DNA of 64,000 nt, taken from NCBI GenBank assembly GCA_017853175.1, contig JAFMKA010000002.1:41651-105650 (forward strand), read 5' to 3'. Below are positions 1-64,000 of the stretch, one piece after another; the stretch's first letter is position 1, and each line of letters starts with the position of its first letter. Source of the DNA: Steroidobacteraceae bacterium. GTDB taxonomy: Bacteria; Pseudomonadota; Gammaproteobacteria; Steroidobacterales; Steroidobacteraceae. Position numbers and translations under genes: made by a program. The notes under the pieces are model-generated. The model saw only the letters and a program-made list of their open reading frames with translations, made no database searches and was not told the origin of the DNA.

Positions 1-45
1 CATGAGGCGGCAAAAGATAGCACGCCCGCGGGCACCCGGCGCCCG

Positions 46-705
46 TCAGGCAGAGCTGCGTGAGACTGCCGCCAGTCGCTGCACCCCGGAGAGCGTGGTT
101 TCCCAGAGGGCCGTGCGGTTCCCCGCTTTGGCTGCCTGAATGCGGCGACGCCAAAAGAGGACGTCTTCACCCCAGCGCAGACTCACACAGGGCCCCGCGG
201 TTTCAGCTAACTCGTCGATTTGTGGCAACTCGAGTGCGCGTAACGCCGCGCAACCCGCCGGGGACAAACCGAGCAAAAGGGACGCCGCTGCAGGACGCGA
301 CTGAGCCGTCTGCCAAGCGAAATAACACACGATGCGAGCAAAGCCCTGGCCCGCCTGCCCCTCGCACAAACCGGGAGGTAGACGCGGTAACCCGACCCCC
401 GTCTGCACCCGCCGCCACAGCGCGAAGGCCGTATCGGTGGAGAGGTCGAATAGCAGGTAAGGACAGTCGGCGACCGACGCGAGCACGCCGTCTTCGAGGC
501 CAAGCCATTCCTCGCGGAGCATGGACGCCGCCGACGGCAGAACGATTTTTGAGCTCTCGAGGGCGTCTCGAAGGATTCGCAAGCCGCGAAGGTTCATGCC
601 GCCGACTTGGCGGATGATCTCGCGATCGACACTGCGAGCGAAATCGGTTTCAGTGGTAGCGAGTGAGATGGGGTCGGGATTTGAGGGTTTTTTGTCGGTG
701 GCCAT
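46..705 (-). CDS. hypothetical protein (divergent partner of the FlhC-like gene)
   Basis: ORF 46..783 trimmed to the ATG at 703-705. GGAGG (711-715, coding strand) lies 5 nt upstream of that ATG. The 78 nt above it are AT-rich and look non-coding. No family recognised by eye. Confidence 0.55.
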   Translation of the reverse strand: MATDKKPSNPDPISLATTETDFARSVDREIIRQVGGMNLRGLRILRDALESSKIVLPSAASMLREEWLGLEDGVLASVADCPYLLFDLSTDTAFALWRRVQTGVGLPRLPPGLCEGQAGQGFARIVCYFAWQTAQSRPAAASLLLGLSPAGCAALRALELPQIDELAETAGPCVSLRWGEDVLFWRRRIQAAKAGNRTALWETTLSGVQRLAAVSRSSA

Positions 706-54309: not shown

Positions 54310-57096
54310 ATGAGTGCCTTACCGACTTCGCCGCCCGATCTCGTCCTCGTAGACGGGTCCTCCTATCTCTATCGCGCCTTCCACGCGCTTCCGCCGCTCA
54401 CCAACTCGAAAGGCGAGCCTACCGGCGCCGTGCTCGGCGTGATCAACATGCTGCTCAAGCTGATGCGCGAAACTGCGCCGGCTCGATTTGCCGTCGTATT
54501 CGATGCGCCAGGAAAAACGTTCCGCGACGAGCTCTTCGCGGAATACAAATCGCATCGACCACCGATGCCCGACGATTTACGTTCGCAAGTCGAACCCTTG
54601 CTCGAAGTCGTTCGCGCGCTCGGTCTGCCTTTGCTGCGAATTTCTGGAGTCGAGGCCGACGATGTCATAGGCACCCTCGCCCGACGCGCATCGAGCACGG
54701 GGCAAAACGTTCTGATTTCGACGGGCGACAAAGATATGTGCCAACTCGTCGAACCGCGCATCACTCTCGTCAATACGATGAGCGGCAGCCTTTACGATCG
54801 TGAGGGGGTGAAAGCGAAATTCGATGTATGGCCTGAGCAAATCATCGATTACCTCGCATTGGTCGGCGACAGTTCAGACAACATTCCGGGCATCGATAAA
54901 GTCGGACCGAAAACCGCGGCGAAGTGGCTAGGGCAATACCAAACGCTCGATCAGCTCATCGCGAACGCCCACGAGGTGACGGGGAAAGTTGGCGACAACT
55001 TACGCGCGGGCCTCGAAACACTCGAGCTGTCTCGAAAACTCGCAACGATTCGGGGTGATCTCGAATTGCCGATCGAAGCCGAGACGCTCGACCGCAGACC
55101 CGCCGATGACGAGACCCTACGCTCGCTATACACGCGCCTCGAATTCCGAGCATTACTGCGTACACTCGACGGCGGCAAAGAATCGGACGACTCCAACGGA
55201 AGCCCCGCGGGGACGAAAACTGCACAAAGTACACCGGATGCCTCAGGTCTCGAACTTCGTCCCGATATTGCCAATGCTCCGCGGCAATACGAAACCGTAC
55301 TCGATCAAACCGCTTTCGAGCGTTGGTGCCAGACACTCGAGCGCACAGAGATCTTCGCCTTCGATACTGAAACGACCAGTCTCGATTACATGGCCGCGCA
55401 GATCGTCGGCGTCTCGTTCTGCATCGAGCCCGGTATCTCCGCTTATGTGCCCCTGAGGCACGACTATGTCGGGGCACCGGCGCAACTCGATCGCGACACC
55501 TTTCTTGCGCGTCTGAAACCTCTGCTCGAGAGCGAGTCCCATCACAAGATCGGCCACAACTTGAAATACGATGCGCACGTACTCGCCAATCACGGCATCA
55601 CACTGCGCGGCATGCGTCATGACACCATGCTCGAGTCGTATGTATGGAATAGCGTCGCCACCCGACACGATATGGACTCCGCAGCCCTGCGCTATCTAGG
55701 TCTGACGACGATCACGTATGAAGACGTCGCCGGAAAAGGCGCTAAGCAGATTTCTTTCGAGCAGGTATCCATCGAGCGCGCCGGTGAATACGCCGCCGAG
55801 GATGCTGACGTCACGCTGCGATTACATCGCACGCTTTGGCCTGCAATTACACAGCAGCCTCAACTTAAGCGTCTCTATGAAGAATTCGAGCAGCCGCTCG
55901 TCGGTGTCTTGCAGCGGATGGAAAGGCGCGGCGTGCTGATCGATCGAGAGATGCTACGCCTGCAGAGCAGCGAACTCGCACGTCGAGCCGAGGAACTCAA
56001 AGCACAGGCTCATGCGGAGGCGGGTACGGACTTCAATCTCGACTCACCCAAGCAGTTGCAGCAAATCTTGTTCGAAAAGATGCAGATTCCGGTGTTGCGA
56101 AAGACACCGACCGGTCAGCCCTCGACCGCCGAGGATGTACTTGAAGAGCTTGCGGATGCCTACGCTCTACCACGACTGATCCTGGACTATCGAAGCATCG
56201 CGAAGCTGCGCAGCACCTACACGGAAAAGCTTCCCTTGCAGGTCAATGCCGAAACCGGGCGCGTTCACACGTCTTACCATCAAGCCGTCGCGCAAACTGG
56301 TCGACTCTCGTCGACCGACCCGAACCTTCAAAATATTCCCATCCGCACACCCGAAGGGCGTCGTATTCGAAAGGCCTTCATCGCGCCGCCGAAGCACGTA
56401 TTGCTGGCTGCAGACTACTCGCAAATCGAGCTGCGGATCATGGCCCATCTGTCGGCAGACGCGGGACTGCTCGGTGCATTCGAAGCGGATCGCGACGTAC
56501 ACCAAGCCACGGCGGCAGAGGTATTCGGTGTGCCGCTCGATTCGGTATCTGCCGATCAGCGGCGATCGGCCAAGGCCATCAACTTCGGGCTCATCTACGG
56601 TATGTCCGCCTTCGGACTCGCACGGCAACTCGGCATCGACCGCAGTTCAGCTCAAAGATATGTCGATTTGTATTTCGAGCGATATCCCGGCGTGAAGGCG
56701 TACATGGATCGCACTCGAGAACAGGCCAAAGACACGGGCTTCGTCGAGACGGTCTTCGGGCGTCGTCTTTATCTGCCTGATATCCGCTCGCGCAATCGGG
56801 CCCTGCAGCAGTACGCCGAGCGCAGCGCGATCAACGCACCGATGCAGGGTACGGCGGCGGATCTCATCAAGCTCGCCATGATCCATGTCGATAGTTGGTG
56901 CGAGCGCGAATCGATGAGCAAAGCCCAACTCATCATGCAGGTGCACGACGAGCTCGTGCTCGAAGTGCGAGAGGATGCCGTCGTCGAGGTCACCGACGCC
57001 GTGCGTCGCTGCATGATCGACGCCGGCCGAAACGCGCTGCGCGTACCCCTGAAGGTGGACGTCGGTGTGGGTCAGAACTGGGACGAAGCCCACTGA
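54310..57096 (+). CDS. polA: DNA polymerase I
   Basis: 5' nuclease domain (LVDGSSYLYRAFHA), 3'-5' exo (FAFDTETTSLD) and polymerase motifs (DYSQIELR, RRSAKAINFGLIYG, QVHDEL). Confidence 0.97.
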   Translation: MSALPTSPPDLVLVDGSSYLYRAFHALPPLTNSKGEPTGAVLGVINMLLKLMRETAPARFAVVFDAPGKTFRDELFAEYKSHRPPMPDDLRSQVEPLLEVVRALGLPLLRISGVEADDVIGTLARRASSTGQNVLISTGDKDMCQLVEPRITLVNTMSGSLYDREGVKAKFDVWPEQIIDYLALVGDSSDNIPGIDKVGPKTAAKWLGQYQTLDQLIANAHEVTGKVGDNLRAGLETLELSRKLATIRGDLELPIEAETLDRRPADDETLRSLYTRLEFRALLRTLDGGKESDDSNGSPAGTKTAQSTPDASGLELRPDIANAPRQYETVLDQTAFERWCQTLERTEIFAFDTETTSLDYMAAQIVGVSFCIEPGISAYVPLRHDYVGAPAQLDRDTFLARLKPLLESESHHKIGHNLKYDAHVLANHGITLRGMRHDTMLESYVWNSVATRHDMDSAALRYLGLTTITYEDVAGKGAKQISFEQVSIERAGEYAAEDADVTLRLHRTLWPAITQQPQLKRLYEEFEQPLVGVLQRMERRGVLIDREMLRLQSSELARRAEELKAQAHAEAGTDFNLDSPKQLQQILFEKMQIPVLRKTPTGQPSTAEDVLEELADAYALPRLILDYRSIAKLRSTYTEKLPLQVNAETGRVHTSYHQAVAQTGRLSSTDPNLQNIPIRTPEGRRIRKAFIAPPKHVLLAADYSQIELRIMAHLSADAGLLGAFEADRDVHQATAAEVFGVPLDSVSADQRRSAKAINFGLIYGMSAFGLARQLGIDRSSAQRYVDLYFERYPGVKAYMDRTREQAKDTGFVETVFGRRLYLPDIRSRNRALQQYAERSAINAPMQGTAADLIKLAMIHVDSWCERESMSKAQLIMQVHDELVLEVREDAVVEVTDAVRRCMIDAGRNALRVPLKVDVGVGQNWDEAH

Positions 57097-57164
57097 TCTT
57101 TCGGTGTTGCGAGCACGCGACAGCGAAATCTATAACTCATTGATTATTAATTAATTTTATTTCT

Positions 57165-57192
57165 GAACTTTCTCAGTTCTCGGCGGGTCTTA
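57165..57192 (+). promoter_or_regulatory. candidate sigma-E/AlgU-type (ECF) promoter for the downstream sRNA
   Basis: GAACTT (57165-70), 17 nt spacer, then TCTTA (57188-92), against the consensus GAACTT-N16/17-TCnnA. It is preceded by a 35-nt AT-rich tract. Confidence 0.5.
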
Positions 57193-57197
57193 ATGCT

Positions 57198-57307
57198 TGA
57201 ACGTAGAGCGTTCCCCGCTTCTATCCCTCCCTGAGCGGGCCCCGGCCATGAGACCTGTGCCGGGTTCGTCTGCCCCCGGTCACCGCAAGGTTTCCGGGGG
57301 TTTTTTT
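57198..57307 (+). ncRNA. candidate sRNA in the polA-engB spacer (positional equivalent of Spot 42 / ErsA)
   Basis: No ORF. Four consecutive hairpins: GAACG/CGTTC 57199-57213; CCCGCT/AGCGGG 57214-57239 with loop UCUAUCCCUCCCUG; CCCGGC/GCCGGG 57241-57264; CCCCCGG/CCGGGGG 57273-57300. A T7 run follows. The 5' end is inferred from the promoter. Confidence 0.55.
57273..57307 (+). terminator. Rho-independent terminator of the sRNA candidate
   Basis: A 7-bp GC stem (57273-79 / 57294-300), a 14-nt loop, then TTTTTTT (57301-07). It abuts the engB stop codon on the other strand. Confidence 0.7.
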
Positions 57308-57986
57308 ATGACCTAGCGCTCGCCCAAAGTTCATCGAGCCGATCGCGCGCCTCGTCTACCCCCAAACCCGAATGCGCCGAGAATAACTGGGCCGTCGCGA
57401 CCTCGCCGAGGGTCGCCTGAGCCTCCCGCAACGCTGCAGCCCGCTCCGCCTGATTGAGCTTGTCCGCCTTGGCGATCAGCACGTGAATTCGGCGCCGAGT
57501 GGGGTCGGCCCACTCGATTAGCCCGAGATCCTCGTCCCGCAGACCCCGTCGACAATCGACCACCAGAAGCAGCCCCCGAAGGCTCTCCCTCTCTCGCAAC
57601 GCATCGAGTAGCGGGACCCATTTGCTGCGTTCATCGGCTCGGATGTCGGCATAACCGTATCCGGGAAGATCGACGATCCGATGCCCCGCCTCCAGCTCGA
57701 AATAATTAAGCAAACGGGTCTGCCCCGGAGTCTTGCTCGTCCGAGCCAAGGCCTTGCGCCCCGAAATGGCGTTGATGGCGCTCGACTTACCCGCATTGGA
57801 GCGGCCTGCAAAGGCCACCTCCGCCCCCGCGTCGGCCGGAAACTGCACGGGCGCCGCCACGCTCAGGATGAAGTTCGCCTTTGGAAAACGCGACACGATA
57901 GGACCGCCCGCACAGGCACGAAAAAGGGGCGTTAGTGTAAACTCCTCGGCCTGAAATCGACGTTCGGAGCCTGCAGAAATGTTCAT
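57306..57986 (-). CDS. engB: ribosome biogenesis GTPase EngB (YihA)
   Basis: EVAFAGRSNAGKSSAIN (G1), DLPGYGY (G3) and KADK (G4). ORF 57306..58133 trimmed to ATG 57986. An in-frame GTG at 57896 would give an N-terminus of E. coli-like length and remove the 8-bp divergent overlap with the cytochrome gene. Confidence 0.85.
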   Translation of the reverse strand: MNISAGSERRFQAEEFTLTPLFRACAGGPIVSRFPKANFILSVAAPVQFPADAGAEVAFAGRSNAGKSSAINAISGRKALARTSKTPGQTRLLNYFELEAGHRIVDLPGYGYADIRADERSKWVPLLDALRERESLRGLLLVVDCRRGLRDEDLGLIEWADPTRRRIHVLIAKADKLNQAERAAALREAQATLGEVATAQLFSAHSGLGVDEARDRLDELWASARS

Positions 57987-58629
57987 CGCCAAGCCCTTCG
58001 CTGCCGCACTGGCCACCGCTGCCCTCGCCGTCCTGATGGCGCCCGCAGCCCTCGCCAAGGGCAATGCCGAAGCAGGCGCTACCAAAGCTGCGGTATGTGC
58101 AGCCTGCCACGGCGTCAATGGCAGCAGCGTCAACCCCGAGTGGCCGAATCTCGCGGGTCAAAGCCCCGTCTACATTCAGGAGCAGTTGCGCCTGTTCCGC
58201 GCCGGACATCGAAACAACATGGTGATGTACCCGCTCGCCATGGCGCTGACCGACGAAGACATCGCTGACCTCGCGGCGTACTTCTCCACGCAGACCCCCA
58301 CGGGTCTAGAAGCCGATCCGACCAACTACAAATTAGGCGAAGCCCTTTATCGAGGCGGTGATCGCACGCGTAATCTGCCGTCATGCGCCTCGTGCCACGG
58401 CCCGGTGGGTCTCGGCAACGCAACCGCGGGTTATCCCGCGCTTCGCGCTCAGCACGCGACCTACACGCTCAAGCAACTAACCGATTACACAAACGATCAG
58501 CGTTACGTCGATATCGCCACCGGCACGCCGACCAAGTCGCGCAATGGACACATGATGTCCACGATCGCGAAGCGCCTCACCGAAGAAGACAAGAAGGCCT
58601 TGGCAAGCTACATCCAGGGTCTTCGCTGA
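57979..58629 (+). CDS. dihaem cytochrome c4
   Basis: Signal peptide and two CxxCH haem sites (CAACHG, CASCHG) in duplicated domains. Confidence 0.85.
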   Translation: MFIAKPFAAALATAALAVLMAPAALAKGNAEAGATKAAVCAACHGVNGSSVNPEWPNLAGQSPVYIQEQLRLFRAGHRNNMVMYPLAMALTDEDIADLAAYFSTQTPTGLEADPTNYKLGEALYRGGDRTRNLPSCASCHGPVGLGNATAGYPALRAQHATYTLKQLTDYTNDQRYVDIATGTPTKSRNGHMMSTIAKRLTEEDKKALASYIQGLR

Positions 58630-59318
58630 TGAAGGCTTTTCGAGCGGCGTGGTTGGCGGCCGTGGGTGTCGCCCTGATCGGCACGGCGATCACGCCCGCC
58701 CCGGTTGAGGCGCAAGACGCCGCTCAAGGTTTGTCGCGTTGGCAGGAAGGGCGACACTATCGCCGTATCTCACCCGTCATTCCGACCAATGTCGCTCCGG
58801 GAAAGGTCGAAATCATCGAAATTTTTTGGTACGGCTGTAGCCACTGCTACACGCTCGACCCCTTCCTCGAGCGCTGGAAGAAAAGCGGCAAACCCTCTCA
58901 TGTCGAGTTTGTTCGTGTTCCGGTCACCTGGAACGCCGGAGCCAAACTGCACGCTCGGCTTTACTACACGCTGCAAGCGCTGAAACAAGACGAGCGTCTT
59001 CATACCAAGGTGTTCGACACCATCTTCCGCACGGGTAACGGTCTTCTGGGTCGCGATGAAGCGTCGACTCTCGAGGTCATGGTCGACTGGGCGAAGCAAA
59101 ACGGTATCCAGGAAAAAGCGTTCCGCGATGCCTGGAACTCCATGTGGGTGAGCACCAAGCTGCGCCAGGCCGACGACATCGTTCGTCGCTACCGCGCGGA
59201 AGGCACGCCTTTCATGGCCGTGAACGGTCGCTACTCGACCGATGTCGGTATGGCGGGCGGCACACAGCAGATGCTGAATCTCATCAACGATCTCGCCAAC
59301 GCGGAGAAGGCTCGCTGA
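58629..59318 (+). CDS. dsbA: thiol:disulfide interchange protein DsbA
   Basis: ORF trimmed to ATG 58629 (1-nt overlap with the upstream TGA). Signal peptide. The thioredoxin active site FWYGCSHCY reads CSHC rather than the canonical CPHC. Confidence 0.85.
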   Translation: MKAFRAAWLAAVGVALIGTAITPAPVEAQDAAQGLSRWQEGRHYRRISPVIPTNVAPGKVEIIEIFWYGCSHCYTLDPFLERWKKSGKPSHVEFVRVPVTWNAGAKLHARLYYTLQALKQDERLHTKVFDTIFRTGNGLLGRDEASTLEVMVDWAKQNGIQEKAFRDAWNSMWVSTKLRQADDIVRRYRAEGTPFMAVNGRYSTDVGMAGGTQQMLNLINDLANAEKAR

Positions 59319-59349
59319 GCCTTTTGCGCGCGACTCTCGGATAGCGCGC

Positions 59350-60324
59350 GTGATCCGGTTTTTTAGGCTAGACGATACCGGGCTGCACGGCGAAACCCTG
59401 CGCGACGGCATTGTCGTTCCCGACGATGCGATCTGGATCGATCTCGTCGAGCCTTCGGCAGAAGAAGAAGCGCGTATCGAACAATTCTTGCGCATCGACG
59501 TTCCGACTCGTGAAGAGATGCGCGAGATCGAAACGTCAAATCGCTTCTATCAGGAGGGCGACACCCTCTATATGACGGCGACGGTGGTCACTAAACTAGA
59601 TACGGCTCGTCCTGAAAATAGTCAGATCACTTTTATTCTCACGCCAGATCGACTCATCACCAACCGGTATGTCGATCCGCTGCCGTTCCGTCGGTACATC
59701 GCCTATGCCGAGCGACATCCGGCGGTCTGCAATTCGGCCGCGGCAGTGCTCGCCGGTTTGCTCGAAGCCATGGTCAATCGAATCGCCGACGTGCTCGAGA
59801 GAACGGGCGACGAGATGGATGCTCTTTCGGCGGAGGTCTTCGGCTCCCCTAACGTCGTTCGACGGCGTGACCGTGATTATCGCGCGATCCTCGAGCGTGT
59901 CGGTCGAAATGGCGACCTGAACTCCAAGGCTCGCGAAACTCTGGGCAGCCTCGCCCGACTGATCGGATTTTTGCAGCAATCGACAGGACATCGATTCGAA
60001 GATGATCTGAAGGGTCGCCTTCACTCGATTCTCCGCGATGCCGAACAACTGAGCAGTCACGCGGCGTTCATGAGTAACAAGGTGCAATTCCTGCTCGACG
60101 CCACCCTAGGAATGATCAACATCGATCAGAACAATATTCTGAAAATTTTCTCGGTAGCTACCGTCGTGCTGTTGCCGCCCTCGGTGATCGGAGCAATTTT
60201 CGGCATGAACTTTGATGTCATTCCGAGCGCCCACGCAGAGTGGGGGTTTTGGGGCGCCCTCGCCATAATGACGATTTCCGCCGTCGTTCCGTTCGTCTAC
60301 TTCAAGAAGCGCGGCTGGCTCTAA
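59350..60324 (+). CDS. corA: CorA family divalent-metal transporter
   Basis: Cytoplasmic N-domain plus two C-terminal TM helices carrying the GMNF signature ([10 protein letters not shown]). GTG start. Confidence 0.85.
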
Positions 60325-60403
60325 AAAATCGCTTAGTGGGGCGTCCCTAGTTAAGGGCTTGACTGCCGGCTCCACCGGCGGAAACTTGGGGATGGAGGAT
60401 GCC

Positions 60404-62560
60404 ATGACCCGAGCCTTTCGTTTCCTGACGTTCTATTTTTTGACCGCTCTCGTTTGGCCGGAACAATCGATCGCGGCAGAATCTGACGACTTCCGCCACG
60501 CGCTGATCATCGGAGTCGCAGTGTATCGCGACGAGGAAGTCCCCCCGCTTTTTGGCGTCCCCAACGATATGGACAGCGCGCGCGAAATCGCTACAGCGAT
60601 GGGTATTCCTGCCGCGAACATCACCGAACTTTTCAACGAGCAAGCAACCAAGAACAACATCATCGCCGAGCTACGAAAACTCTCTCAGCGAAAAACTGAT
60701 GGCGGACGCATCCTCATCTATTTCTCTGGACATTGCACGCGCTGGCGCGAAGCGAGCTCCGGGGGTTGCGTCGAGGGTCTGCTCACCTGGGACAGACAAG
60801 TCATCGTCAATCGTGAGTTTGCACAGTTCGCAAGACCGCTAGGCTTGAAAGCCGACAAACTCATCATCATGTTCGACGCATGCCACTCCGGAGGCGTTGC
60901 GGGTGTGGCTCGCAATACGAGGTCGCTCGGTGGCAACGCGCTTTCCCCAAAATTCTTTATGCGTGCCGATGCCACAGACGCGGCATGTAGTAAGCCCTCG
61001 AACGTTCGCACGAGAAGTCTGATCGGCCCTGCTCAAGACGGCATCGAACCGCTGCCCGAAAACGTCGTGCATATCATGTCGGCCCGCCCCGACGAGGTGA
61101 GCTTCGATGAGCCAAGTCGCGGCGGCCTTGCCACACAGGCCGTTAAGCGGTGCCTACTCGGCGGTGCGACGGATACCGATGGCAGCGGAGGAGTGTCTCT
61201 GGCAGAAGTCGAAAACTGTTCTCAGGGCTTCATCCGCGAAAAAGTCGCGCGCTTCCCTGACTTACTACCCCACCATATTTCTATCTCAGGTCTCCGCAAT
61301 CTCGTGCCGGTCGCCGCGCAGAGCAGCGGTGCCACCCCTTCGGCCGAAGCCGTCCGCCTCGAAAAAGAACGACTCGCCAAAGAACAGCAAGAAGCCGAGC
61401 AACGTCGGAGAGCCGAAGAGGAACGAATCGCGACTCAGCGTGCCGAGCAGGTTCGGCTCGAGCAAGCGCGAGCGGCTGAAGAGCGGGCGCGAGCCGAAGC
61501 TGAACAATCGAGACTCGCCGCTGAACGTGCCGAAGCCGAAAAAGCTCGCCTCGCAGCGGAACGAGCCGAGGCCGAAAAACAGCGGCTCGCCGCCGAGCGC
61601 GCCGAGCAAGCCAAGCGCGAGCAAGAGCGCCTCGCCAAAGAACGCGCTCAGGCCGAAGCTGAAAAAGCTCGCCTCGCGGCAGAGCGAGCCGAGGCCGAGA
61701 AGCAGCGACTTGCCGCCGAGCGTGCCGAGCAGGCTAAACGCGATCAGGAGCGTATCGCTAAAGAACGGGCCCGAGCGGAGGCGGAGCAGGCCCGTCTCGC
61801 GGCGGAGCGAGCGGCTGCCGAAAAAGCCCGCCTCGTAGCGGAGCGTGCAGAAGCCGAGAAGCAACGACTCGCCGCAGAACGCCTCGCGCAGGCCCGACTC
61901 GAACAAGAAAGGCTCGCTGCGGAGGCGGCACTCGCCACAGCAGCCCAGGCCGCAGCAGCTCAAGCCGCAGCAGCCCAGACCGCAGCAGCGCAGGCCGCTG
62001 CACTACAGGCGAACACCCCTACGGCGGCGACCGGACCCAGCAGCGCGCCTTCAGCACCTGCAGCGGTCGGGGCTCTGGCCTCGCTCAAAGATATCTATGC
62101 TCAACGGGATACCCGGAGGAGCGTTACCGTCACCGTACCGAAGGACACTTTGCGCATCGATCAAGACCCGTTCACGATGACCGTGACCTCTTCGCATGCG
62201 GGGTACGTCTATGTGCTACTTCTCGGAAGTGATGAAACGAGCTTCTACATGCTCTTCCCTAACGCACTCGACGAAGCCAATCGCATCGAAGCTAACAAAC
62301 CCCTGAAACTTCCGCGCCCCCACTGGGGGGTCAATGCGGCGGGGCCGCCGGGGACGGATCAAATCTTGGTCATCGTTTCGGAGACGGCTCGAAACCTCGC
62401 CGTCTTGCCAAACCAAGCGAGCGGTGCCGAAAATACGTTCATCCTGACCCCCGCAGATTTGGGCGGACGTCGCCAACTCGTGAACTTCGTCATTGGCTCG
62501 GGTGTTTCGGGTGCCTCGCGTTTCGGTGCGAACTGGATAACCGTCAAGGAGGTTCAATGA
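60404..62560 (+). CDS. exported caspase-family (peptidase C14) protein with long coiled coil and DUF4384-like C-terminal domain
   Basis: ORF 60359.. trimmed to ATG 60404, with GGAGG at 60394-98. Signal-like [26 protein letters not shown]. Catalytic dyad contexts ILIYFSGHC and [11 protein letters not shown]. An E/R/A/K/Q helix of about 220 aa. The C-terminal [27 protein letters not shown] resembles DUF4384. Confidence 0.85.
61344..62010 (+). repeat. coding tandem repeat (41-codon/123-bp units plus a 15-bp Ala/Gln repeat) encoding a TolA-like helical spacer
   Basis: Units start at 61544, 61667 and 61790 ([41 protein letters not shown] and variants). They are flanked by looser ERLAKE-type heptads. 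GCAGCAGCNCARRCC x4 lies at about 61940-62003. Confidence 0.8.
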
Positions 62561-63060
62561 TTACCTTTCAATTCGTTTTTTTGGTCGCCCTTCTTGCGGC
62601 TCCTCCACCGAACCCGACGGCTCAAGACATCATTGACCGCCTGAGCGACGCGCCTGCCAAAGAAGCTCAGGGCAACCTTGGGCAAACGAGAAGTCTTCGA
62701 AATCTCGCTCCTAAGATGCGTGCCATCGACATGAACATTCAGTTCGAGTTCAACTCGGCAAAGATCACCCAAGAAGGGAGCGATGCGCTTCAGCAACTCT
62801 CGATCGCGATGAAGTCTGCGCAACTCCTCGAGTCTCGATTCGTTATCGTAGGCCACACCGACGCGAAAGGCACAGCCCAGTACAACCTCGACCTGTCTTC
62901 ACGACGCGCTCAGTCCGTTTTGGGTTATCTCAAGTCGCAAGGCATCGATATCGGCCGTCTCGAAGCGGTCGGCAAGGGGTTCAACGAGTTACTCAACGAA
63001 GATGATCCTCTCGCCGCCGAAAACCGCCGGGTCCGGATCGTCGCGGTGTCTACGCCATGA
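62557..63060 (+). CDS. OmpA-family peptidoglycan-binding protein
   Basis: ATGA overlap with the caspase gene. N-terminal hydrophobic signal. OmpA_C-like core FEFNSAKIT...[26 protein letters not shown]...ENRRVRI. Confidence 0.85.
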
Positions 63061-63515
63061 AACGCCTTCGACTCCCGGTCGTCACCTTGGCGATGCTGCT
63101 GATCGCACGCGCTCTGCCGGCGGCCGAGCCTCTTCTGCTCGTCACCGAGGAGGAACTTCAAGCCTCCATGGCTGCCCCGGAGCCTTTATTCCCACGCTTT
63201 ACGCCAGAGCCCGGTGCACCACGCATTCTGGTAGAGACGCCGAAACTGAATGCGGCTCTGCCATCGCCTATCGCCATGAGATTGCGGTTTCAGGCCGCCG
63301 ATGGCACTGCCATCCGACCCGAGACCTTCAAGGTACGGTACGGGTCGCTGCGGATCGACATCACCGCCCGGATCACCGGGTCGACGGCGGTCACGGCGGA
63401 CGGCCTGGAGATCTCTCAAGCCGCCCTTCCCAAGGGTAAACACAGGATCATCTTCGCCGTGGAAGACGCCGCGGGACGTCTCAACGAGCGCCAACTTCAG
63501 TTCGAAATCATCTGA
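63057..63515 (+). CDS. small secreted beta-rich protein, no recognisable family
   Basis: ATGA overlap with the OmpA-like gene. Signal peptide [25 protein letters not shown]. About 125 mature residues with alternating beta-type patterns. Confidence 0.6.
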   Translation: MKRLRLPVVTLAMLLIARALPAAEPLLLVTEEELQASMAAPEPLFPRFTPEPGAPRILVETPKLNAALPSPIAMRLRFQAADGTAIRPETFKVRYGSLRIDITARITGSTAVTADGLEISQAALPKGKHRIIFAVEDAAGRLNERQLQFEII

Positions 63516-63530
63516 CCCTAGAATGGGGAC

Positions 63531-64000
63531 ATGCGTAACCCCATACAGCTGCTGAGCCCGAAACTCGTTCTCTCTTTGATCATCGCGTTACTCGTCACCG
63601 CCTGCGGAGGCGGCGGAGGCGGCGGAGGCACCAGCGGCGGCAGCGGAGACACCGGTTCCAGCTGCTCACTGACGAATCGACAAAATTGGGTCGTCTCGCA
63701 GATGAACGAGTGGTATCTCTACCCCGATACCCTCCCCAAAAATATCAACGTCGCAAACTACAACTCCGTCGATGCGCTCATCAGCGCAATGATCGCGACG
63801 GCAAAATCGCAGAACAAAGATCGCGACTTCACCTATATCACTTCAGCCTCGCAGGAAGACGCCCTCATCCGCTCTGGCTCGACGGCCGGCTTTGGCATCT
63901 TGCTCTATTACGATTTGACCGCTCGGCGCGTATTCATTCTTGAGGCTTATGAAACCGCGCCCGCTTACGCGACAGCCAACATCGACCGCGGCGACGAAAT
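63531..64000 (+). CDS. S41 family (C-terminal processing) peptidase lipoprotein, 5' part only (runs off the window)
   Basis: My own translation from ATG 63531, since no stop falls in the window and it is absent from the ORF track. Lipobox LLVTAC, then a Gly8 linker encoded by (GGAGGCGGC)n at 63606-63629. NRQNWVVSQMNEWYLYPDTLP and a PDZ-like FILEAYETAPAYATANIDRGDE are typical of S41 lipoprotein peptidases. Confidence 0.65.
   Translation, partial: MRNPIQLLSPKLVLSLIIALLVTACGGGGGGGGTSGGSGDTGSSCSLTNRQNWVVSQMNEWYLYPDTLPKNINVANYNSVDALISAMIATAKSQNKDRDFTYITSASQEDALIRSGSTAGFGILLYYDLTARRVFILEAYETAPAYATANIDRGDE

Follow-up and report, generated by a model that had tools for sequence, protein, structure and literature searches.

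Do the genes at the right-hand end of this Steroidobacteraceae contig work together and, if so, at what? The stretch analysed, hereafter the window, comprises 64,000 nucleotides (nt) of contig JAFMKA010000002.1 (assembly GCA_017853175.1) and ends in four consecutive open reading frames (ORFs), ORF1 to ORF4. A first-pass annotation described these as an envelope module made of an exported caspase-like protease, an OmpA-like anchor, an orphan secreted protein and an S41 lipoprotein protease. Comparative sequence analysis indicates that ORF1 to ORF3 are one conserved, exported and translationally coupled unit, found in two proteobacterial classes and in two gene orders. We propose below how such a unit might function and weigh that proposal against its alternatives.

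Conservation of the ORF1 to ORF3 trio

The ORF1/ORF2 and ORF2/ORF3 junctions are both ATGA start/stop overlaps (62557-62560 and 63057-63060), and the ATG of ORF4 at 63531 lies 15 nt past the ORF3 stop, precisely as first annotated. A TTG at 60359 provides an alternative start for ORF1; orthologues begin at the ATG at 60404. Since the 4-nt ORF1-ORF2 overlap is retained in 39 of 43 loci, we do not attribute it to chance. Scanning the unit for promoters and terminators gave nothing informative, with no plus-strand terminator inside it.

A profile search with ORF3 through species-representative genomes recovered 39 loci, all metagenome-assembled, in Acidibacter and Steroidobacteraceae (up to 93% identity), Nevskiaceae and many freshwater Burkholderiales. 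The order C14-DUF4384, OmpA, ORF3 was observed in about 35 of these; most of the exceptions were truncated by contig ends, and three loci had ORF3 alone. A metagenome scan for a distant ORF3 subfamily then added 80 loci with the permuted order ORF3, OmpA, C14-DUF4384. Where at least 3 kb were available on both sides (21 metagenome loci), a C14 protease was found in 18 and the full trio in 14. The linkage first noticed in the window thus recurs in its relatives, including a rearranged second subfamily. Two trio-bearing contigs (L035 and L040) are binned as Planctomycetota and Terrimicrobiaceae, reflecting either horizontal transfer or a binning error.

It could be argued that these are adjacent envelope genes of unrelated function, given that overlapping stop and start codons are frequent in operons and that the S41 gene shows plain synteny at this locus. 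We consider this highly improbable, because the trio is kept across two classes and two gene orders, occurs as natural fusions and shares a sequence motif.

Export was judged from the N-termini of homologues. Those of all three families have a short basic stretch, then a hydrophobic core and an AxA-type site, ahead of the first conserved residue, and in ORF1 the caspase domain begins directly behind the signal. The ORF1, ORF2 and ORF3 families are all predicted to carry Sec-type signals on this basis, and the N-termini first read as export signals in the window recur as such in the homologues of each protein.

Domains of the protease and its two partners

ORF1 is a member of peptidase family C14 (Peptidase_C14, PF00656; E=1.6e-15, 57.9 bits against a cut-off of 21.4, amino acids (aa) 31-255). 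Its dyad contexts read YFSGH(110)C and FDAC(160)HSGG; in the alignment with Arabidopsis metacaspase-4 (AtMC4; SGHG and DSCHSGG motifs), SGH110 and DAC160HSGG fall on the catalytic His and Cys, and Cys160 occupies the column of the Cys that entry 6w8r carries as Ala. Of the 120 family members compared, all have the His motif and 118 have the D[AS]CHS motif. Judging from these alignments, ORF1 carries an intact metacaspase-type His/Cys dyad of catalytic type, and the dyad assignment of the first-pass annotation stands.

At the one S1-pocket position considered, Asp158 sits two residues ahead of Cys160, as in metacaspases, whose acidic S1-pocket residues give Arg/Lys specificity. Four noncatalytic cysteines (C122, C195, C250 and C272) are conserved in the ORF1 family, which fits an oxidising compartment. 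The pattern D.[DN].[DNSG]G.[ILVM]...[ED] was found in 107 of 113 full-length family members, and the EF-hand-like loop that it describes, D257-E268, may bind Ca2+. NCBIfam returned no matches for either ORF1 or ORF3.

Behind the caspase domain lies a predicted helical spacer composed of 35% Ala, 20% Glu, 16% Arg, 10% Gln, 8% Leu and 5% Lys. Its coding sequence contains a 123-nt tandem repeat (61529-61825; 2.4 copies, 79% match). Spacer lengths in close relatives are 219, 226, 250 and 296 aa, and the linker from C14 to DUF4384 ranges from 32 to 296 residues across relatives. These patterns indicate that the long predicted helix is a recent, clade-specific tandem-repeat expansion. The charged helix of about 220 residues noted at first is thus present in the window but not general to the system, and the description 'periplasm-spanning' does not hold as a system property. 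In the closest relative (L008, 7211-9501), the C14 and DUF4384 parts lie in different frames, which may stem from misassembly of the repeat or from a genuine break in the gene.

The C-terminal part of ORF1 matches DUF4384 (PF14326; E=6.1e-14, 52.3 bits against a cut-off of 27, aa 588-661). AlphaFold2 (AF2) modelled this region as a beta sandwich, with a predicted local distance difference test (pLDDT) score of 85.7 and a predicted template modelling score of 0.84; over the first 10 residues of the modelled region, pLDDT was <50. Pfam and the model thus agree with the Ala/Gln/Pro linker and DUF4384-like beta domain of the first-pass annotation. Foldseek searches with the model found generic Ig (immunoglobulin)-like, MSP and macroglobulin-domain neighbours only, at E>=4e-3. 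An hhalign comparison (probability 0.6%) led us to reject homology of DUF4384 to ORF3.

ORF2 contains an OmpA domain (PF00691; E=4.9e-19, 68.9 bits against a cut-off of 27.2, aa 63-157), and a canonical GHTDAKG...NLDLSSRRA-type motif is visible in its translation. In the OmpA_C motif TD...LS..RA, the Asp and the Arg contact the peptide stem. ORF2 is, by its sequence features, an anchor of the OmpA_C, peptidoglycan-binding type, which agrees with the signal peptide plus OmpA_C domain initially assigned to it. Assignment to a named OmpA subfamily (YiaD, Pal, YfiB and others) was rejected, all NCBIfam equivalogs scoring far below their cut-offs. The basic residues of the ORF2 signal have been lost in the window's clade; homologues elsewhere have canonical signals.

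ORF3 had no Pfam match above threshold, the best being Big_13 (18 bits against a cut-off of 27). An exhaustive profile search placed it in a family of 1,314 clusters (50% identity) at E<=1e-3, or 679 at E<=1e-10, none of which has a Pfam family. Far from being an orphan, as first supposed, ORF3 belongs to a family of about 1,300 clusters, and this family is an unnamed one and not a well-known group of unrelated function. In the AF2 model (pLDDT 84.5), the signal peptide is followed by a conserved LVTxxE segment, with which the mature protein begins, and an unstructured linker leads from there to an Ig-like sandwich; ORF3 is thus modelled as an Ig-like fold. Foldseek found only generic Ig, CopC and PKD neighbours for this model, and the family profile matched nothing in the PDB at E<=10.

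Natural OmpA::ORF3 fusions, with ORF3 as the C-terminal part, were found in four proteins (P0166, P0174, P0183 and P0316); the P0316 locus is syntenic with the window and was found on 10 contigs. Such fusions are good evidence, from gene architecture, that ORF2 and ORF3 would cooperate physically. Together with the conserved trio, they also favour the earlier suggestion that ORF3 is a dedicated partner of the protease, plausibly a substrate. In another protein, P0231 (380 aa), an ORF3-type domain follows a 240-residue region that resembles a trypsin-like fold (…GAPILDGKGRLIGIHGG…) and has no Pfam match.

Table 1. Positions of the ORFs, predicted domains and candidate cleavage sites in the window.
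Feature	Position	Strand	Description	Basis
ORF1	60404..62560	+	718 aa; predicted exported metacaspase/orthocaspase-like protease with C-terminal DUF4384	ORF list, Pfam
ORF1 signal peptide	60404..60478	+	Predicted Sec signal, cut before ES; homologue signals canonical, ending just before the caspase domain	Read from sequence
Caspase-fold (C14) domain	60494..61303	+	His110 at 60731-60733, Cys160 at 60881-60883	
TRSL site A	60917..60928	+	T172-R173-S174-L175 (NTR173SL) in the p20-p10 linker; candidate autoprocessing site	
TRSL site B	61010..61021	+	T203-R204-S205-L206 (RTR204SL) in the p20-p10 linker; candidate autoprocessing site	
EF-hand-like loop	61172..61207	+	D257-E268; candidate Ca2+ site	Function inferred only
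Helical spacer	61349..61930	+	Ala/Glu/Arg/Gln/Lys-rich, ~200 aa, predicted helical	Helicity from composition
Low-complexity linker	61931..62060	+	Ala/Gln/Pro-rich; 15-nt repeat at 61934-62002	
DUF4384 domain	62060..62557	+	Beta sandwich with two flanking helices	Pfam, AF2
ORF2	62557..63060	+	167 aa; predicted periplasmic OmpA_C-like peptidoglycan-binding protein	ORF list, Pfam
ORF2 motif	62686..62706	+	T44-R45-S46-L47-R48-N49-L50 (QTR45SLRNL) before the OmpA domain; candidate cleavage site	
ORF3	63057..63515	+	152 aa; predicted exported protein of an unnamed family: signal peptide, LVTxxE segment, linker, Ig-like sandwich	
ORF3 Arg47	63195..63197	+	LFPR↓FTP; conserved basic position in the exposed linker; degenerate counterpart of RTRSLP elsewhere	
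ORF4 (partial)	63531..64000	+	Lipoprotein with S41-peptidase N-terminal domain; neighbour, not core	Pfam

A recurrent T-R-S-L motif and a possible proteolytic mechanism

We observed a short motif common to the protease and its partners. Across 111 ORF1 homologues, we counted 89 occurrences of TRS[LMI], where 2.0 would be expected; they fall at two fixed positions of the p20-p10 linker (+10..14 and +40..49 from the catalytic Cys). TR[SG][LM] precedes the OmpA domain in 28 of 38 distinct ORF2 homologues, and the remainder carry close variants. In ORF3, the position of Arg47 is occupied by Lys or Arg in 74% of 138 diverse family members, and the AF2 model has its lowest confidence in the linker around it, which is unstructured. 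The second subfamily has an RTRSLP-type motif (RxR[SGNQA][LMFVWI]) in 57 of 68 ORF3 linkers, and its proteases contain FRTRSL twice in their own linker. Because T-R-S-L recurs in the ORF1 linker, in ORF2 and in many ORF3-family proteins, the simplest reading would be that one recognition motif serves both self-activation and the cutting of the two partners.

We therefore suggest, tentatively, that ORF1 to ORF3 may form an extracytoplasmic proteolytic module in which an exported, Arg-specific protease processes itself and cuts wall-anchored partners, an account that we rate as falling a little short of probable. Exported ORF1 would activate itself by cutting after Arg173 and/or Arg204, as orthocaspases and type II metacaspases cut linkers after basic residues; passages in two papers describe orthocaspases as cleaving behind basic residues and autoprocessing as required for activity (PMC6426788; PMC5756287). 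ORF2 would bind peptidoglycan and hold ORF3, and DUF4384, on its flexible or rod-like leash, would bring the protease close to both. ORF1 would then cut ORF2 after Arg45 and ORF3 after Arg47, severing the wall-bound or Ig-like domains from the conserved N-terminal segments, and the module would act as a wall-tethered, self-contained proteolytic switch.

Several observations weigh against this account. The mechanism as a whole rests on sequence inference, and a docking role for DUF4384 is guesswork. At its ORF3 site, the window itself has a degenerate sequence (FPR47↓F and not TRSL), and among the 103 closest ORF3-family representatives the strict form TR[SG][LMF] was found in only 8, with a looser motif in 37 against 10 expected. 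In some loci, ORF3 (L100 and L102) or ORF3 and OmpA (L087) carry the motif with no C14 gene within 6 kb; it could accordingly be a binding motif or the site of another protease. ORF3 is also found with C14b-type proteases alone, and these have no TRSL sites of their own. Covariation of Ser and Gly at the P1' position between protease and ORF2 is partial and confounded by relatedness, and we set it aside as evidence. Finally, the ORF2 signal in the window (62557-62625) is atypical, having a hydrophobic core without a basic residue, so that export efficiency or membrane anchoring may differ in this clade.

The association with C14b-type proteases bears on what ORF3 does. Second ORF3-like copies adjoin exported proteases of this type at four loci (L016 16706-18619, L023 4012-5906, L034 5571-6853 and L007 9102-11371), and the ORF3 family therefore pairs with several kinds of exported caspase. 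In a further group (L107 and L109-L114; for example, L111 1520-5132), ORF3 lies with a C14b protease and a 169-aa lipoprotein, and both OmpA and C14-DUF4384 are missing; the linker of ORF3 nevertheless retains PPRTRSLP. On another interpretation, ORF3 might serve specifically to inhibit or regulate exported C14 proteases and not be consumed as a substrate, its exposed Arg loop acting as bait or pseudosubstrate and the OmpA protein keeping the inhibited complex at the wall pending a releasing signal. Its genes adjoin every exported C14 kind, including C14b-only loci and paralogue pairs, its small sandwich has an invariant polar cluster (D101, T103, R105, H129, D137 and R141), and Ig-like cysteine-protease inhibitors such as chagasin exist. 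We nevertheless think this unlikely. ORF3 has no Pfam match to inhibitor families at E<=0.1, and a motif shared by the protease linker and ORF2 is more simply a cleavage site. A chagasin-type (I42) inhibitor specifically was rejected, because the top Foldseek matches are generic neighbours that include no chagasin-like entry and neither Pfam nor the PDB profile search (E<=10) gave a match.

The same motifs could instead mark sites of transfer. Clan CD enzymes are able to transpeptidate, and ORF1 might mainly be a transpeptidase or maturase (compare PorU and GPI transamidase of clan CD) that cuts at TRSL and links ORF2 or ORF3 covalently to peptidoglycan or an outer-membrane component. The wall-binding partner and the cleavage-type motifs at domain boundaries are compatible with this idea, but nothing points specifically to ligation and the C14-family members characterised to date are hydrolases; we regard it as very unlikely. 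The proteolytic module remains our preferred account.

Accessory genes and related systems

Additional proteases accompany the trio in many relatives. One to three extra exported CHAT/C14 proteases, variable in number and order, were found in 27 of the 39 genome loci, and 17 of the 39 also add a 169-residue lipoprotein. The extra proteases are either TPR-CHAT proteins, present in Nevskiaceae and some Burkholderiales relatives, or have a C-terminal C14 domain behind an unknown region of 330-620 residues. No CHAT or second C14 gene was found anywhere in the 64-kb window, and the closest relatives likewise have no extra genes. In terms of the proteolytic module, the extra proteases would probably be upstream sensors or initiators, with the window holding a minimal version.

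Taken further, this suggests an extracytoplasmic caspase cascade, in which exported TPR-CHAT/C14b sensors would activate a wall-tethered C14-DUF4384 executioner. The executioner would recognise an RTRSL degron in itself and in its peptidoglycan-anchored partners, and cleavage would switch the envelope state (defence, lysis or signalling). The window would then be a sensor-less core, and repeat-expanded rods would set the reach across the periplasm. This wider scheme is speculative, and we hold it to be improbable as it stands. Envelope surveillance and lysis, among the roles first suggested for the module, are speculative too.

The variable set of extra proteases might also be taken to mean that the trio is the effector arm of an envelope conflict or cell-death system (anti-phage, anti-predator or kin-directed), in which TPR-CHAT/C14b sensors start a periplasmic caspase cascade and the window is a decayed or minimal remnant. 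The CRISPR-linked protease Csx29 has the TPR-CHAT architecture, and DUF4384 is among the kinds of C-terminal domain found in its substrate Csx30. However, PADLOC gave only generic caspase and ZorB/MotB-domain matches, no toxin-like effector domain was found, and the locus has a stable housekeeping synteny in this lineage (engB, cytochrome c, dsbA and corA) and does not resemble a defence island. The minimal version is also well conserved, at 77-94% identity among relatives, contrary to decay. We judge a conflict function quite unlikely. A gasdermin-caspase defence system was rejected because neither ORF2 nor ORF3 had a gasdermin match in Pfam or PADLOC.

ORF4 matches Pept_S41_N (E=6e-10) and has the lipobox LVTAC; its orthologues combine fn3 and Peptidase_S41, and the catalytic domain of ORF4, which leaves the window unfinished, lies beyond the window end. 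The initial identification of an S41 lipoprotein is thereby upheld, but its inclusion in the module is not. The S41 gene adjoins the trio in 7 of the 39 genome loci, all in one Steroidobacteraceae/Nevskiaceae synteny group, and only where corA, dsbA, cytochrome c and engB accompany it too. We rejected it as a fourth component on this distribution and regard it as a lineage-specific syntenic neighbour.

Upstream of ORF1, a block at 54310-60324 comprises a 928-aa ORF, engB (minus strand), dihaem cytochrome c, dsbA and corA. Relatives in Nevskiaceae and Steroidobacteraceae share this synteny, and in them the 928-aa gene encodes DNA polymerase I. Between corA and the caspase gene, Nevskiaceae have a TPR-CHAT gene that is missing from the window. 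At Hydrogenophaga-type loci (L005 10604-13217 and L006 10512-13125), the module is followed by a VanZ-like gene, a LuxR-type response regulator and a histidine kinase, and these genes may be a regulatory link.

By analogy, the module would work most like self-activating orthocaspases combined with the dedicated-substrate logic of Craspase. Orthocaspases and type II metacaspases (C14B; Microcystis MaOC1 and AtMC4) share with ORF1 the caspase fold, the aligned His/Cys dyad, the Asp two residues before the catalytic Cys, a possible Ca2+ loop and candidate post-Arg self-cleavage sites in the linker past that Cys. Unlike them, ORF1 has a predicted Sec signal, conserved extra cysteines and a variable leash to DUF4384, and is genetically locked to wall-binding and Ig-like proteins. 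We know of no study of any member of its exported C14-DUF4384 subfamily.

In Craspase (type III-E), TPR-CHAT Csx29 cuts the flexible linker of Csx30. The logic in common is a caspase-fold protease, a dedicated partner and an exposed linker whose cleavage parts an N-terminal segment from a C-terminal domain. DUF4384, which forms the C-terminal domain of some Csx30 proteins, is found on the substrate in Craspase and on the protease here. The TPR-CHAT gene of Craspase is absent from the window and encoded in relatives of the locus; without a CHAT homologue in the 64 kb, a Craspase-like TPR-CHAT system was rejected for the window itself. In contrast to Craspase, the module parts all carry predicted export signals, and no CRISPR link or RNA trigger was apparent: the Pfam lists of five loci with called genes contained no Cas domains, no cas-profile search of the window or loci having been made.

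Prc-NlpI, CtpA-LbcA and YfiB-YfiR likewise have a periplasmic protease or regulator placed by an OmpA-like or lipoprotein partner, and an S41 gene does adjoin the trio here. Unlike in those systems, the protease is a Cys enzyme of caspase fold, and the S41 gene is not conserved with the trio. Bradyrhizobium A5ECX2, a secreted caspase domain with putative wall-binding YARHG repeats, has been noted in passing (PMC3355149). It resembles the module in joining an exported C14 domain to a presumed peptidoglycan-binding function; A5ECX2 is a single protein, whereas the anchor here has its own coupled gene, and there is also a third partner and a motif in common. In our literature searches, DUF4384 and secreted caspase domains were mentioned only in passing, and we came across no account of the module.

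To our knowledge, every bacterial caspase-fold protease with an assigned role is cytoplasmic, and the module would be the first defined extracytoplasmic caspase-type system. With named candidate substrates, candidate sites (R173 and R204 in ORF1, R45 in ORF2 and R47 in ORF3) and a predicted motif, the proposal is directly testable. In conclusion, the module gives context to two large protein sets that lack an assigned function, DUF4384 and the unnamed ORF3 family of about 1,300 clusters, both of which are common in abundant freshwater Burkholderiales and Steroidobacteraceae that are known mostly from metagenomes.

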